From a phage, in assembly GCA_023859445.1 (NCBI GenBank), contig GCA_023859445.1_4337.1: a DNA stretch of 27,839 nt. The stretch is one strand, 5' to 3'. The position numbers and the translations under genes are program-made. Shown in pieces: positions 1,605 to 27,433 of this stretch (position 1 is its first letter; every line of letters begins with the position of its first letter). A model generated the notes under the pieces. It saw only the letters and a list, made by a program, of their open reading frames with translations. It had not been told where the DNA came from and did no database searches.

Positions 1605-1893
1605 ACCGTTTAGCCAACTCTTCCAGCAAATTTTTATACTCTTCAAAATATTCCTCGACCAAATCATCGCCGAAATAGAAGTCGATATACTCGAGATTAT
1701 CTCTTACGTTAAGCGACGCCGACATGGTGCTTAGTTGGCGTAAGCTAATTAGCTTCATTTCTGTTTCTACACAGAAAGGCCGGTAGGTATCGAGGTGGCA
1801 AGAGATGTTGAAGCATAAAGCGAACTCTCCCGCCACGGAGTGAACCATATACACTTCGTTTTCTGCTTTATTGTGGAAAATTACACCTTTCAT
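1603..1893 (-). CDS. Hypothetical protein (96 aa)
   Basis: ORF track; start overlaps stop of upstream gene in ATGA arrangement (1890-1893); lies directly upstream of primase gene on same strand. Confidence 0.5.
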   Translation of the reverse strand: MKGVIFHNKAENEVYMVHSVAGEFALCFNISCHLDTYRPFCVETEMKLISLRQLSTMSASLNVRDNLEYIDFYFGDDLVEEYFEEYKNLLEELAKR

Positions 1894-2072
1894 TTCACAT
1901 TCTCCTTAATCCATTCTTCAACTTTATTACGGTCAAATGTACCTGGTAAACGGCGACCCATAACCTTAATACAGCAGTCAGGGAATTTACCACTGCGCAA
2001 CCAGTTATTAATTGTCTGACGTGTTACCCCAATACGCTCTGCTACTTCATTCTGTGTCATGTAATGTTGCAT
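1890..2072 (-). CDS. Small HTH DNA-binding protein (AlpA/excisionase-like), 60 aa
   Basis: Start chosen at ATG complement 2070-2072 (SD AGGAG 8 nt upstream) rather than track start 2186. Helix-turn-helix-like segment TQNEVAERIGVTRQTINNWL. Confidence 0.55.
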   Translation of the reverse strand: MQHYMTQNEVAERIGVTRQTINNWLRSGKFPDCCIKVMGRRLPGTFDRNKVEEWIKENVK

Positions 2073-2103
2073 TTCTATATCTCCTGTTTGTTTGGTGAAA
2101 CCG

Positions 2104-2169: not shown

Positions 2170-2199
2170 TTGAAAGTTCTTGACACATGTTTGTATAAT
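2170..2199 (+). promoter_or_regulatory. Candidate sigma70 promoter (TTGAAA-18-TATAAT), divergent from 2104-2132
   Basis: TTGAAA 2170-2175, TATAAT 2194-2199, TG immediately upstream of the -10. Confidence 0.45.
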
Positions 2200-2226
2200 G
2201 GTTTTGGGACTTGTATATATTACGGA

Positions 2227-2258
2227 GTTGACGAACCCTCCCCGAGGGATTCGTCAAC
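2227..2258 (+). promoter_or_regulatory. Long imperfect inverted repeat/hairpin just downstream of the promoter
   Basis: GTTGACGAACCCTC (2227-2240) pairs with GAGGGATTCGTCAAC (2244-2258): 14 bp with one bulged A, 3-nt loop. Confidence 0.55.
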
Positions 2259-2491
2259 CCCTCCCATACGGCTGAGATGCTTGCCTTGGGGTTTAAGGAT
2301 AAGTGTATCTAAATCTCATTTAAAGAAGTAACCCACTGAAATATCTACTGTTTCTTAATGTGCCGTAGATTCGCAACCATAAAAATGTAACGATTATTGG
2401 GCAGGCTTAAGGCCCGCCCTTTAGTTACCAAGTAATAAGAATAAAGGCACAACCTTCCCTAAAGAATCACAACGGCAACGTAACTATTCTC

Positions 2492-7488: not shown

Positions 7489-7658
7489 TGTTCAGCGACA
7501 TCAACGCGGCAATCGAAGAAGCAATCTGGCGTCGCTACAACGGCGAGCAGCAGCGGCACTTCTGCCTGGTACAACGCGGTAACATGATTGCTGTGGTACA
7601 GGACCGTGATAATAAATATCCGAATGCGATGTGGACAACGAGGAATTTTTTAGGATGA
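7488..7658 (+). CDS. Hypothetical small protein (56 aa)
   Basis: ATG 7488 (TAATG overlap); codons counted to TGA 7656-7658. Confidence 0.4.
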   Translation: MFSDINAAIEEAIWRRYNGEQQRHFCLVQRGNMIAVVQDRDNKYPNAMWTTRNFLG

Positions 7659-7891
7659 TTACCAGCATTCCGAACCTGATTAAAGAATTTGGCACGATGG
7701 CCGAGACATGCCGACAAACCGGCATCAACGAAATGACGATTGCGAAGTACAGCAAAGACGTCGATTGCGAGCGCCACGTAATTTATAACAATCGTCTGAT
7801 GACGCACGTTAAGACAAGCCCGGTGTTATTCACGCGCCGGGGTATTACTAAAACAGAGCAACGTATTGCTAAAGAGGGGAGTGGGGAATGA
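7655..7891 (+). CDS. Small putative DNA-binding protein (78 aa)
   Basis: ATG 7655 in frame with track ORF 7631-7891, ATGA overlap; helix-turn-helix-like segment CRQTGINEMTIAKYSKD. Confidence 0.45.
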   Translation: MITSIPNLIKEFGTMAETCRQTGINEMTIAKYSKDVDCERHVIYNNRLMTHVKTSPVLFTRRGITKTEQRIAKEGSGE

Positions 7892-12679: not shown

Positions 12680-13140
12680 TGATGGGCTTTTTCAAAGTAA
12701 CTGACGTACCGTCTCGTCGCGTAGTCCAGTACGCCCGCGTGTCTGGCTCTGGAGAGAACGTGGTGTTTATTGATGATGAAAGTGTACTCGGTACACCCGA
12801 AGACGATATGCCGTTTGCAGATAAAACCGGTATTGCGTTACCCGCGGCGGGCATGCTTTATGAAATTCCGTATCTGGCGGATGCAGGTGACGTGTATTTC
12901 TCGGTGCAACCGAAAGACACCGAGCTGGTCGACGGTAGCGCCACCATCACCGTCGAAGTTAAGGCGGGTAAAGCGCCGTGTGTACTGACCTGGTACAAAG
13001 ACGGTAAGGAAGTGGTAAACGCCCCGGAAGAGGCTTTGTCTCTAACGGTTAATGCAGTTGGCGAATACTTTGTTAAAGTTACTGATGCCGATGGTGTAGA
13101 GGCCGTAAGCAAAGCGGCGAAGGTTACTAAGCCAGAATGA
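12679..13140 (+). CDS. Hypothetical protein with C-terminal Ig-like (beta-sandwich) segment, 153 aa
   Basis: ORF track; C-terminal pattern TITVEVKAGKAPCVLTWYKDGKEV...GEYFVKVTDADG resembles Ig-like/BIG domains; possibly virion decoration. Confidence 0.45.
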   Translation: MMGFFKVTDVPSRRVVQYARVSGSGENVVFIDDESVLGTPEDDMPFADKTGIALPAAGMLYEIPYLADAGDVYFSVQPKDTELVDGSATITVEVKAGKAPCVLTWYKDGKEVVNAPEEALSLTVNAVGEYFVKVTDADGVEAVSKAAKVTKPE

Positions 13141-13144
13141 TAAA

Positions 13145-13169
13145 AGGCCCCTTTCGGGGCCTTATTTTT
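13145..13169. terminator. Bidirectional intrinsic terminator
   Basis: Stem AGGCCCC/GGGGCCT, loop TTTC, flanked by AAAA upstream and TTATTTTT downstream; lies between convergent genes ending at 13140 (+) and 13172 (-). Confidence 0.75.
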
Positions 13170-13171
13170 CA

Positions 13172-13273
13172 TCAAAGTTCACCATTCCCGCTATCTGCGT
13201 CCTCGACCCCGCTAACAGCCCACACAAACAATCCTAAATTAACCAGTAACACAAATGAAATTGCTACCATCAT
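13172..13273 (-). CDS. Small single-pass membrane peptide (33 aa: MMVAISFVLLVNLGLFVWAVSGVEDADSGNGEL)
   Basis: Minus-strand ATGATG at 13273/13270, SD GGAGG 5 nt upstream, own copy of the conserved promoter upstream and the bidirectional terminator downstream; hydrophobic core with acidic tail. Confidence 0.5.
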   Translation of the reverse strand: MMVAISFVLLVNLGLFVWAVSGVEDADSGNGEL

Positions 13274-13298
13274 AACCACCTCCACTATACGTTTACTT

Positions 13299-13328
13299 AA
13301 TAGTACCCTATTATGTTGGTGTCTGCAA
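13299..13328 (-). promoter_or_regulatory. Conserved phage promoter, copy 3 (TTGCAG-N17-TACTAT, minus strand)
   Basis: -35 complement of 13323-13328, -10 complement of 13300-13305; palindrome AATAGTACCCTATT at 13299-13312. Confidence 0.5.
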
Positions 13329-13342
13329 ACTATTTGTTTACG

Positions 13343-13394
13343 TATTCCAGTTATTCCACTCAATTGTAAATGTTGGAATAAGCTATTCGAATAG
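13343..13394. promoter_or_regulatory. Operator-like array of TATTCCA/TGGAATA half-sites plus 12-bp palindrome CTATTCGAATAG
   Basis: TATTCCA 13343-13349 and 13352-13358, TGGAATA 13374-13380 (8-bp IR with 15-nt spacer), palindrome 13383-13394; lies between divergent promoters. Confidence 0.4.
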
Positions 13395-13423
13395 TTGACT
13401 TTTCACCAAAAATGTGCTAAGCT
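13395..13423 (+). promoter_or_regulatory. Candidate sigma70 promoter with extended -10 (TTGACT-17-TGcTAAGCT)
   Basis: -35 13395-13400, TG 13415-13416, -10 TAAGCT 13418-13423. Confidence 0.45.
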
Positions 13424-13603
13424 CCACCTGAGCTTGTGAAGTATGAACAAGCGACCGCGGCGCGGGCAGGTAACGGAGCGGGACGTAAGTCCTGAGTGTA
13501 GTTACGCTGACGCGTTCGGAAGGGCAATACTCTATTGCTTGTGTAAAAAGTAACTGGTTTACTGAGATTACGCCGTTTCTATGTTTAAATGATAAGGACT
13601 AGC

Positions 13604-13630
13604 GCCCCGCTTTAAGGCGGGGCTTTACTT
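13604..13630 (+). terminator. GC-rich hairpin with weak T-tract just upstream of Rz
   Basis: Stem GCCCCGC/GCGGGGC (13604-13610 / 13617-13623), loop TTTAAG, then TTTACTT. Confidence 0.35.
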
Positions 13631-13647
13631 ATCGAGAAAGGGGAAAC

Positions 13648-14034
13648 ATGAATCTTAAAGCAACTGTCGTAGCGGGAGCATGTTTCATCATCCTGGCTTA
13701 CGCACACGGCATCTACCAGTATCGCAGCGGCTGGAACGGAGGCCGGGCGAATCTCGTTTCGCAGCAACAGCAGAAAGCACAGGCTGAGCTTGTGAAGAAA
13801 ACACAACGGCAGCAGCAGGATGAATCAAAGGCCGCAGCCGCCGATAACGAAGGCAAGACGAAATCAGAGGTGATCACCCGTGAAGTCGTTAAGTACATTA
13901 AAACGCCTGGCCGCAGCGTGTGCACTTTTGACCCTGAGCGCGTGCAGCTCAAGTCCCGCGCCGTCGCAAACGCCAATTCCATCCCCGGATACGACGATGA
14001 TGCAGCCGCCGTGCAAACTGGCACTGCCAAGTAA
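13648..14034 (+). CDS. Rz: Inner-membrane spanin (Rz-like i-spanin), 128 aa
   Basis: ORF track; N-terminal TM segment, then Gln/Lys/Glu-rich predicted coiled coil; contains an embedded lipoprotein gene in the +1 frame. Confidence 0.7.
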   Translation: MNLKATVVAGACFIILAYAHGIYQYRSGWNGGRANLVSQQQQKAQAELVKKTQRQQQDESKAAAADNEGKTKSEVITREVVKYIKTPGRSVCTFDPERVQLKSRAVANANSIPGYDDDAAAVQTGTAK

Positions 14035-14143
14035 CGACGCGGACGAGGATTTAGCTATTGACGTCCAGAACGCAGAATGTGTACGGCAACTGAGACTTAA
14101 AGTGTTCATGTTGCAGGATTACGTGAGGAATATTCTGGAATAG
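13880..14143 (+). CDS. Rz1: Outer-membrane lipoprotein spanin (Rz1-like o-spanin), 87 aa
   Basis: ORF track (GTG start, SD AGAGGTGA); signal peptide with lipobox LSAC followed by Pro-rich mature region; starts inside Rz in the +1 frame and extends 109 nt past the Rz stop. Confidence 0.7.
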   Translation: MKSLSTLKRLAAACALLTLSACSSSPAPSQTPIPSPDTTMMQPPCKLALPSNDADEDLAIDVQNAECVRQLRLKVFMLQDYVRNILE

Positions 14144-14222
14144 TTGCCTTGTATGTTGGAATAATTTATTCTTGACATGTAAATCCGGGTGGCCCGGATT
14201 CCAACGTCCAGGGGACATACTG

Positions 14223-22247: not shown

Positions 22248-22355
22248 GTAGTGTGTTAGAATAATTTTGCACCTAGTGTCGCGCACGAAAAGCGGATGGT
22301 TACCGCCTGGTGCATTTAAGCCAAACCAACAACCTCTTAACCAAAGGATTAAAGA

Positions 22356-26032: not shown

Positions 26033-27433
26033 ATGGGTGACTTATATTTCCCACGTAGCCTTAAGCCAATTGTATCGAAAGGCTACTCAATGACCAGACG
26101 TAACAACGTCTGGAGTGTAGATTTAGCCGGTGGCGGGGTGCGTCAGGGCCGTGACACGTATTACGACGTGTTCCCTGTTAGCGTAACCCTGATTACATCC
26201 GCAATGGGGCGACAGGCGTTTCTGTCGTTCCTCGAAAAAGTAGACGGCGGTGCGTCAAGTTTCTGGATGGCGCACGACTTCGGCATGGGCATCGAAGATT
26301 ATCAGGTAACCATTACGTCCACTATCGCCGAGTCCACCGAAGACGGGATTAACTGGACAATCACCTTCACGGCAACCGCCGAGAAATCGCCGTTCCAGGA
26401 CCTTGAGAACCAGTGCCTGATTAACAATCTGCCAGATTTGTACGGCTGTTACGGGGATTGTCTGGGTAGTTTCCTGAAAATATACGCGAACTATGAGACG
26501 ACATTCCCTCGCATCTGGAGCGACGAAGGTCCTGCCGGATATCCGCCGATTAACATGCTGGCATCTACGCTTGATAGCCGCATTGTTTATGAGGGGCCGC
26601 AGGTTTATTACATCAACCACAACGGTAATCTTGTGCAGTCCGCCGTCAATGAATGGCCTCTTACGTTTATTGACGGGGTTGCTGTCGGGCGTGTGCCGCC
26701 AGAGGTATCAGTAACTAACAGATTCCTATATTCAAGCAATTTCTCTTCGTCAAACTGGAACAAAGGTTTGGTTAGTGTATCAGTATCTGAAACAGGTGTT
26801 TTAACAGCCGCGGGCACGTACGACGTAACTGCTACCGCCACAAGCGGTAACCACCTAATAAACCAGACTGTAGATGTTAGCGTCGGTGTTGGCGACAAGG
26901 TGACTTTTAGTTTCTTCGCAAAAGCAAACGGATACAATTTCATACGGATGTACGTGCGAGAACTTCCTACAGCATTAGGCTCAGCAGTTGTAGATTTGCG
27001 GGATGGTAGCATTTATTCCGGCCCAGGCGGTACAGATGTAACCGACGTAGGCGGAGGGTGGTTCCGAATATCGGAGACGGTCAACGCGACAGAAGATAAA
27101 ACAATGAGCATACGGATGGACGCATGGATATATTCAGACGGAGTTACCGGGACATTTACGGGGGATGGCGTTTCAGGGATTAAATTATCCGCGGCTACTG
27201 TAGAGGTAAACCAAAATACAACATCACCAATAATTACGGCGGCGTCTCCTGTAACACGCCCCGCGGCATCGGCAAAAGTAGTAATGAACGGCGCAACAAG
27301 CATCGGCATTACCTACTCCGACGGCTCTGTGGTAGACGTTCAGGCTGTTGACGGTTACGCCACCATCCCACAGGCGGATTCTGCGTGGGGTAGTAAATAC
27401 GTCACCCGTATTGATTTTAATGTGGACGGTTAA
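26033..27433 (+). CDS. Minor tail protein, lambda gpM-like N-terminal domain with long C-terminal extension (466 aa)
   Basis: ORF track; N-terminal pattern SVTL...FLSFLEKVDGGASSFWM resembles lambda gpM (recalled); first tail-tip gene after tape measure. Confidence 0.5.
   Translation: MGDLYFPRSLKPIVSKGYSMTRRNNVWSVDLAGGGVRQGRDTYYDVFPVSVTLITSAMGRQAFLSFLEKVDGGASSFWMAHDFGMGIEDYQVTITSTIAESTEDGINWTITFTATAEKSPFQDLENQCLINNLPDLYGCYGDCLGSFLKIYANYETTFPRIWSDEGPAGYPPINMLASTLDSRIVYEGPQVYYINHNGNLVQSAVNEWPLTFIDGVAVGRVPPEVSVTNRFLYSSNFSSSNWNKGLVSVSVSETGVLTAAGTYDVTATATSGNHLINQTVDVSVGVGDKVTFSFFAKANGYNFIRMYVRELPTALGSAVVDLRDGSIYSGPGGTDVTDVGGGWFRISETVNATEDKTMSIRMDAWIYSDGVTGTFTGDGVSGIKLSAATVEVNQNTTSPIITAASPVTRPAASAKVVMNGATSIGITYSDGSVVDVQAVDGYATIPQADSAWGSKYVTRIDFNVDG

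Follow-up and report, generated by a model that had tools for sequence, protein, structure and literature searches.

The sites bound by Mu Mor and C, by Ogr of phage P2, and by p4 of phi29 are dyads or repeats that lie upstream of or overlap the -35 element of weak sigma70 late promoters. In lambda, the PR' promoter, with the Q element placed at the promoter itself, gives rise to an RNA of about 200 nucleotides (nt), the 6S RNA, that ends at the intrinsic terminator tR' ahead of the lysis and head genes, and at the lambdoid OR and OL operators of CI and Cro one protein activates or represses depending on where it binds. Here we compare with these systems two short arrays of repeated half-sites that bracket the spanin genes Rz and Rz1 (13648-14143) in a stretch of phage DNA of 27,839 nt (GenBank assembly GCA_023859445.1, contig GCA_023859445.1_4337.1), hereafter the window, which comes from a relative of Escherichia phage K1H (99.2% identity; Kagunavirus, Guernseyvirinae). 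Judged from sequence comparisons, the repeats are probably a protein-binding regulatory array, and the reading that we favor, with somewhat less assurance, is that they are operator arrays for a dimeric, sequence-specific regulator acting on two promoters, termed P1 and P2 below.

The arrays resemble the Mor, C, Ogr, and p4 sites in that there are few of them per genome and in that they lie at lysis and morphogenesis promoters; unlike those sites, they have unrelated motifs, and one palindrome also covers the -10 element of promoter P2. No homolog of an activator of the Mor, C, Ogr, or p4 type was seen in the window. The layout of promoter, RNA, and terminator is the only feature that P1 has in common with lambda PR'; the P1 sites lie upstream of the -35 element rather than between -35 and -10, the RNA is conserved and structured, with covariation, and the Serratia phage Otaku has a leader without a terminator. 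A search for a Q-like protein among the small proteins of the window gave no match. As at OR and OL, several palindromic sites are distributed along promoter DNA; unlike OR and OL, they belong to two promoters, separated by 750 bp, within the structural region of a phage that is virulent, have no immunity function, and mix palindromes with direct half-site repeats.

A further comparison is with NinH of lambda, a Fis-like homodimer with DNA-binding and DNA-bending activity and a preference for the palindromic 15-bp pattern G-N13-C (PMC7166090). The operators proposed here share with NinH and Fis sites a palindrome with G/C ends and an A/T-rich center containing TpA steps, NinH and Fis are small homodimeric helix-turn-helix proteins, and a gene for a NinH-family-like protein lies just upstream of the structural genes of the phage. 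In contrast to the NinH and Fis pattern, the phage dyad is G(-6)/C(+6), that is, G-N11-C over 13 bp, its half-sites are sharp rather than degenerate, and no part in late transcription is known for NinH. As a kind, operator arrays at the promoters of phages are well known, while the motif, the layout, and the possible link to NinH are new. The searchable literature yielded no description of GAATA-N3-TATTC arrays, of P1 or P2, or of the leader RNA, and for promoters, start sites, and transcriptomes of Kagunavirus and Jerseyvirus it held only predictions of the PHIRE type and one low-resolution transcriptome sequencing (RNA-seq) study. A strong promoter of phage MB78 reportedly lacks a -35 consensus and interacts with a phage-specific factor (this is said to have appeared in Virus Genes in 1997), and our literature search found no promoter work on this phage.

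In the window, whose coordinates equal K1H coordinates plus 8810, a Hoc-like head decoration gene (ending at 13140) is followed by a terminator (13144-13170), Rz and Rz1, and then the scaffold and major capsid genes. A stretch of 507 bp ahead of Rz is without annotation in the K1H record. The elements of the region are as follows; positions relative to P1 and P2 refer to the predicted start sites.

13343-13348 and 13352-13357, unstranded: two direct TATTCC half-sites with a 9-bp period (TATTCC-N3-TATTCC), at about -87 to -73 of P1
13366-13372, plus strand: TGTAAAT block that separates distal from proximal half-sites; Kagunavirus and Jerseyvirus conserve it and Cornellvirus does not
13375-13388, unstranded: putative operator O1, GGAATA-AGC-TATTC, centered at about -48 of P1, half-sites invariant and spacer variable
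13383-13394, unstranded: CTATTC/GAATAG palindrome abutting the -35 element of P1, centered at about -41.5
13395-13423, plus strand: predicted promoter P1, with -35 TTGACT (13395-13400), a 17-bp spacer, and extended -10 TGcTAAGCT (13415-13423)
13430-13627, plus strand: predicted P1 transcript, a structured RNA of about 200 nt ending at an intrinsic terminator (stem 13604-13623)
13648-14034, plus strand: Rz, from the list of open reading frames (ORFs); annotated as spanin in the K1H and Bas70 records
frame ending at TAG 14141-14143, plus strand: Rz1, overlapping Rz, from the ORF list; annotated as spanin in the same two records
14127-14135 and 14137-14143, unstranded: upstream half-sites of P2, GGAATATTC and GGAATAG, at -52 to -44 and -42 to -36
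14144-14172, plus strand: predicted promoter P2, with -35 TTGCCT (14144-14149), a 17-bp spacer, and -10 TATTCT (14167-14172)
14158-14171, unstranded: putative operator O2, GGAATA-ATT-TATTC, centered at about -14 and spanning -21 to -8 of P2
14183-14199, plus strand: hairpin of the predicted P2 transcript, atCCGGG-tgg-CCCGGat, at about +5

A preliminary description of this DNA had drawn attention to five copies of the heptamer TGGAATA/TATTCCA, and all five are where it placed them: TATTCCA at 13343-13349 and 13352-13358, and TGGAATA at 13374-13380, 14136-14142, and 14157-14163. We likewise found the palindrome CTATTCGAATAG at 13383-13394 and the 12-mer ATGTTGGAATAA, with exact copies at 13370-13381 and 14153-14164 only, each followed by TTGAC(T/A) (TTGACT at 13395-13400 and TTGACA at 14172-14177). 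The claim that GAATAGTTG also follows each 12-mer is right for site 1 (13389-13397) and wrong for site 2, where it precedes the 12-mer (14138-14146). The two copies of the 12-mer differ in their promoter positions, lying at about -60 to -49 of P1 and -26 to -15 of P2.

The total number of heptamers in the window is unremarkable, with six found against 2.8 expected and at least six in 5 of 100 shuffles. Three GGAATA/TATTCC hexamers within 60 bp arose in 1 of 300 dinucleotide shuffles, and two separate clusters of this kind arose in none of 300. Five GAATA/TATTC pentamers within 60 bp are found at sites 1 and 2 only, in the window as in the whole 41.6-kb K1H genome, and an exact 12-mer repeat has an arithmetical expectation of about 0.003 per window. 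A similar density of the motif elsewhere would have spoken for random occurrence, as the preliminary description pointed out, and neither the window nor the K1H genome contains a comparable cluster. One further look-alike, at 22250-22270, was considered as an operator and rejected, as it is an extended -10 element (TGtTAGAAT).

The heptamer did not survive as the unit of the array. The unit is instead a 13-bp palindrome, GAATA-N3-TATTC, together with hexamer half-sites (TATTCC/GGAATA), and the window has one copy of the palindrome at each site, GGAATAAGCTATTC at 13375-13388 and GGAATAATTTATTC at 14158-14171, with further half-sites around each. Against a chance expectation of about 0.04 per genome, the palindrome was counted as follows.

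K1H, Bas70, and Golestan (Kagunavirus): 2 copies each
SE2 (Jerseyvirus): 2 copies
FSL SP-031 (Cornellvirus): 3 copies
Serratia phage Otaku (outgroup): 0 copies
Klebsiella phage Kp4886-1 (outgroup): 0 copies

Conservation was assessed on 48 IMG/VR loci that were retrieved through the Rz protein, independently of the motif, together with annotated relatives; the Cornell-type set was partly retrieved by motif pattern, and FSL SP-031 was found independently, through Rz. At site 1, a consensus of the three genera is identical in 23 of 23 half-site columns, in 11 of 14 promoter columns, and in 10 of the remaining 44 (half-site versus other columns, Fisher P = 2e-10), and within the palindrome each genus has its own 3-bp spacer (AAC/AGC, CTT, or AAT). 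Of site 2, nearly all of 35 variants share the blocks GGAATAGTTGCCTT and TGGAATAATTTATTCTT(G) without change, and the six bases between them vary. Pattern scans that covered 2.9 million viral contigs found 47 IMG/VR contigs with the architecture of site 1 and 58 with the site-2 operator and its hairpin, at one copy per contig, and all of these were Guernseyvirinae-sized contigs or fragments. Because the motifs are kept in relatives from three genera, chance is ruled out as their explanation. The idea of a binding array in the preliminary description stands to the extent that half-sites are invariant in three genera, spacers vary, and the sites belong to two promoters only; the unit and the placement relative to promoters are not as it had them. 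The third palindrome of FSL SP-031, TGAATAAATTATTCC at 26068, lies at the start of the o-spanin gene, where it encodes MNKLFL, and the same 15-mer is found upstream of the -35 element of P2 in contig IMGVR_UViG_2706796649, which may be coincidence or function.

Site 1 does not lie directly upstream of Rz, as had been supposed, since P1, the predicted structured RNA, and its terminator come between them. The array spans about -87 to -36 of P1, whose start site the promoter elements suggest to be near 13430. The hexamers of P1, its TG, and its spacing are conserved in Kaguna-, Jersey-, and Cornell-type phages, and P1 has the fifth best sigma70-like score of the window, as ranked within the window by a rough position weight matrix of our own. 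O1 is one of only two GAATA-N3-TATTC palindromes in the Kagunavirus and SE2 genomes counted, and TATTCGAATAG adjoins it as an additional half-site element. The CTATTC/GAATAG palindrome is conserved within Kagunavirus only, and Jersey- and Cornell-type phages carry TATTCAAAAAG in its place. The direct TATTCC half-sites are kept in all three types, and they belong to P1 because they are also kept in relatives without the neighboring minus-strand cassette; for the same reason we rejected them as part of a minus-strand promoter at 13300-13328. That cassette occupies a variable minus-strand cargo slot (13172-13335) between the Hoc-like terminator and site 1, which in the window holds a gene for a 33-amino-acid (aa) hydrophobic peptide (13172-13273, minus strand) with a strong ribosome-binding site and an early-class promoter, and which in relatives holds a Dam-type methylase, a sliding clamp, or other genes, or is empty.

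At site 2, the elements of P2 are invariant in the three genera and suggest a start site near 14179, and P2 ranks 20th by the same matrix. O2 covers the 3' part of the P2 spacer and the -10 element, which is its right half, and 34 of the 35 variants have it unchanged, in contrast to the variable 6 bp on its upstream side. The upstream half-sites overlap the last five codons and the stop codon of Rz1 in Kaguna- and Jersey-type phages, and in the 35 variants they show almost no synonymous variation, while the codons just before them vary. Cornellvirus has an insertion of a terminator and a minus-strand gene behind Rz1, and GGAATAG with the site-2 core is still kept ahead of the scaffold gene; because the core is kept there without the Rz1 overlap, its conservation does not come from coding constraint. 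Otaku, which is without GGAATA motifs, has TTGCCC-17-TATATT at the aligned P2 position, and in all four lineages, including Otaku, a hairpin CCGGG-nGG-CCCGG begins 11 to 13 nt past the -10 element of the P2 type. The stem of this hairpin is conserved, its loop base can be any of the four nucleotides, and a G-U-compatible change is seen in one relative; having no U tract, the hairpin is not a terminator. TTGACA (14172-14177) was rejected as the -35 element of site 2, as it is TTGTTA in Jersey-like phages and lies between the -10 element and the start.

The promoter also bears on where the scaffold gene begins. The K1H record starts it at TTG 14172, between the -10 element and the predicted +1 of P2, and 14172-14222 is noncoding because indels occur in it among relatives. 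The start codon is likely ATG 14223, behind the conserved GTCCAGGGGACATA, and the start in the K1H record is likely wrong. A mosaic joint lies exactly at this start codon, with two unrelated scaffold/capsid modules following the same P2 region, and the K1H-type capsid (322 aa) is closest to the Otaku capsid (79%) and not to those of most Kagunaviruses. Another leader, that of the tail operon (22254-22306, plus strand), has the extended -10 TGtTAGAAT, which in SE2 is TGtTATTCT, so that TATTCT is an extended -10 hexamer there as well; its conserved hairpin GCGGATGGTTACCGC resembles the P2 hairpin CCGGGTGGCCCGG and may be a shared 5' element of late mRNAs.

Half-sites that are invariant although their spacers vary, the symmetry of the palindrome, a register that is fixed relative to the promoter elements, and two occurrences per genome are what lead us to regard these sequences as operators of a dedicated dimeric protein. 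A sequence-specific, probably dimeric regulator would bind the arrays on two sigma70-type promoters that would be read by the host RNA polymerase, and the extra half-sites, at steps of 9 to 10 bp, would allow cooperative binding of further copies or bending of the DNA. P1 would yield the structured, terminated leader RNA, so that the spanin genes would receive read-through only, and P2 would drive the scaffold, capsid, and downstream head-tail genes. The array is a separable module: the early region of Golestan contains a second P1 core with the first ~40 nt of the RNA and no GGAATA sites, the Cornellviruses Shemara and W5 keep site 2 and have a different strong promoter and RNA in place of site 1 and its RNA, and lineage L093 carries the full palindrome TGAATAAATTATTCC 5 bp upstream of the -35 element of P2, which is nearly the placement of O1, 6 bp upstream of that of P1.

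Several observations weigh against operators of this kind. Both P1 and P2 match the consensus at 8 of 12 positions (for P2, four of six in each hexamer), and a simple consensus scan with a threshold of 9 of 12 hexamer matches calls neither of them. The positions of the palindromes, -48 and -14, differ widely and fit neither a pure activator nor a pure repressor. As the right half of O2 is the -10 hexamer, part of its conservation needs no extra factor, and distal site 2 overlaps coding sequence of Rz1 in phages of the Kaguna and Jersey types. The only RNA-seq paper on a Kagunavirus does not resolve promoters (PMC12645636).

That the net effect would be activation of late transcription is, in our estimate, an even call, and we lean to activation on account of a weak P2 core and of half-sites directly adjoining the -35 elements of both promoters. 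Repression is the rival that fares best, and we consider it unlikely. A repressor bound at O2 would occlude the -10 element of P2, and O1 with its flanking half-sites would block or loop P1, so that, and again we think this unlikely, the spanin and head genes would be held off early in infection or limited in expression. The location of O2, over -21 to -8, is a classic repressor position, the P1 core occurs without the array in the early region of Golestan and so probably fires unaided, and Cro-like and Xis-like helix-turn-helix proteins are among the gene products of the phage. Lytic phages, however, usually switch their late genes on and do not derepress them. The P2 core, moreover, is weaker than that of Otaku, which has no array, and half-sites that abut the upstream edge of -35 at both promoters have the geometry of an activator. 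As to the proteins, the Xis-like one is missing from the array-bearing FSL SP-031, and the Cro-like one is also present in Otaku.

Quite improbable, in our judgment, is that the motifs are parts of the core promoters and serve no dedicated factor, with TGgAATAAT as an extended -10 element, TATTCT as a -10 element, and A/T-rich sequence making contacts with the alpha subunit in the manner of an UP element. The TATTC of O2 does coincide with the -10 element of P2, TATTCT is also the -10 hexamer at the tail-operon promoter of SE2, and the sites are A/T rich and lie at -40 to -60. Such an explanation would nonetheless leave aside the P1 palindrome at -48, which is away from core elements and has invariant halves and a variable spacer, as well as the direct TATTCC repeats at -87 to -73, beyond any core element, and the invariant G/C bases are a misfit to the A/T-tract UP consensus. 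TGgAATAAT can be read as TGn plus AATAAT, but with AATAAT as the -10 element the invariant TTGCCT is left 10 bp upstream, too close for a -35 element and without a role, and the homology to the Otaku promoter is lost; we therefore rejected this assignment.

There is very little probability that the repeats are recombination linkers, module boundaries, or remnants of duplication with no role in expression, even though both sites are module joints, with variable minus-strand cargo to the left of site 1 and two different scaffold/capsid modules joined right after site 2, RNA modules are swapped in Cornellvirus, and an exact direct repeat of the 12-mer flanks the spanin cassette, for one would then expect conservation in blocks and finds instead that the bases between the short half-sites change and the half-sites do not, that Jersey- and Cornell-type sites retain the half-sites and not the 12-mer, and that the motifs are in fixed register with promoter elements.

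Equally remote is that the binding protein comes from the host, for example Fis, another nucleoid protein, or a response regulator. We know of no E. coli regulator motif that matches the sites, and none of those that we compared informally (sigma54, sigmaE, RcsB, ArgR, Fur, CpxR, TyrR, ArcA, IHF, and the DnaA box) fitted. The palindrome, G/C flanked and A/T rich, is loosely like a Fis site (for the Fis and NinH consensus, see PMC7166090), the motif is absent from the gene regions of the regulators themselves in the phage, and arrays are found in phages of E. coli and Salmonella and not in one of Serratia; the Fis consensus, however, is degenerate where the half-sites are far sharper, and their dyad is spaced more closely by 2 bp.

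If the arrays are operators of a dedicated dimeric protein, the phage may itself encode that protein, and two DNA-binding signatures only were seen among the small ORFs of the window, Xis-like HTH_17 and NinH-like. The Xis-like protein (1890-2078, minus strand) is disfavored as the regulator, as it is missing from FSL SP-031, which bears the arrays. The second is the following.

7655-7891, plus strand: NinH-like helix-turn-helix protein of 78 aa, encoded three short ORFs upstream of the small terminase subunit

We put this NinH-like, Fis-type protein forward as a tentative candidate for the regulator. Still more doubtful is the fuller proposal that its dimer would be the late switch, binding both arrays and turning on the scaffold-capsid-tail promoter and the promoter of the leader RNA that would gate the spanins. 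NinH is the only family match for all six orthologs, one of which (P0009) scores 31.4 bits, and the sources name the orthologs NinH. The recognition helix is conserved across the three genera, and all array-bearing genomes tested have the gene, which is missing from Otaku and Kp4886-1; among near-complete array-bearing IMG/VR contigs it is present in 47 of 48, and one is undecided.

A number of findings tell against the link to NinH. The protein of the window has a sole Pfam match, PF06322 (NinH), at 23.4 bits against a cutoff of 29.8. The co-occurrence of gene and arrays falls within one clade and is not independent, and four small conserved ORFs have the same profile of presence and absence. 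T1-like phages that encode a 49 to 50% identical protein have no operator (EKq1) or a single intragenic copy inside a coding region, which is probably there by chance (ATCEA23). The structure model is poor (pLDDT 58.7; three N-terminal helices), and its best fold matches are helix-turn-helix domains at nonsignificant values (E ≥ 0.66); a search of PDB sequences with the protein was uninformative. The residues that are presumably aligned with the two DNA-contacting arginines of Fis differ from them. In the operator, the G/C dyad is at ±6 and not at ±7, and the TpA steps, at -3/-2 and +2/+3, are one base inward of those of the NinH/Fis consensus, at -4/-3 and +3/+4 (PMC7166090). In the window, O1 is G-N13-G and O2 is G-N13-T, and only the Cornell-type O1 (GGAATAAATTATTCC) fits G-N13-C.

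The RNA between P1 and Rz, which is conserved, could act in cis as a leader or attenuator of the spanins, or it could be a small RNA. Its terminator was detected 20 nt ahead of the start of Rz, its folding z-score is -2.7 against shuffles, and an RNAalifold consensus has 22 pairs, 7 of them with compensatory changes. No credible Rfam match was found, either for the whole window at the gathering score or for 13380-13660 at E values up to 10. In Bas70, a 36-aa ORF is annotated within the leader RNA, and its start codon is lost in Jersey-like phages; this "gene" of the Bas70 (BASEL) record appears to be a wrong annotation. Otaku has a shorter version of the leader that runs into Rz without a terminator. 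The early region has a second unit of promoter, RNA, and terminator, at 37600-37850 in Golestan, where it is a paralog of the P1 core and the 5' domain of the RNA, and at 2170-2424 (plus strand) in the window, where the RNA is a different one, with a long hairpin (2227-2258) and the best sigma70-like promoter of the window, TTGAAA-18-TATAAT. In the Cornellviruses Shemara and W5, it is a promoter of this type that sits upstream of Rz, and promoter/RNA modules appear to be interchangeable between the early and Rz loci.

A different dyad is already on record for these phages, the Kagunavirus repeat tgAATAGTa-ccTATTat-T, predicted by PHIRE as a "phage promoter" (PMC9825357). Like the arrays, it is A/T rich, lies at promoters, and has an AATA/TATT core; as AATAG-N4-CTATT over an early-class -10 element, it forms a set separate from GAATA-N3-TATTC. 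The window has five copies, at 2508, 3802, 13299, 22218, and 25924, on highly conserved early-class promoters (TTGCAC-17-TACTAT), and there are 7 or 8 per Kagunavirus genome, 3 in SE2, and 0 or 1 in FSL SP-031 and Otaku. This dyad probably serves a different regulator as its operator.

Our comparisons suggest that the arrays mark an undescribed gene switch, in which P1 would serve the leader RNA and the spanins and P2 the scaffold and capsid. Phages of Kagunavirus and Jerseyvirus have been sequenced by the hundreds and put forward as therapeutics against E. coli K1 and Salmonella, their transcription program is essentially unmapped, and the intergenic regions described here carry no annotation; this analysis supplies two predicted promoters, the operator motif GAATA-N3-TATTC, a leader RNA, and a short list of candidate regulators. 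A late switch operated by the NinH-like protein would, if true, give the widespread NinH family, lambda NinH included, its first physiological role, and it would add a new two-promoter late regulon in some 500 sequenced phages that are candidates for therapy.

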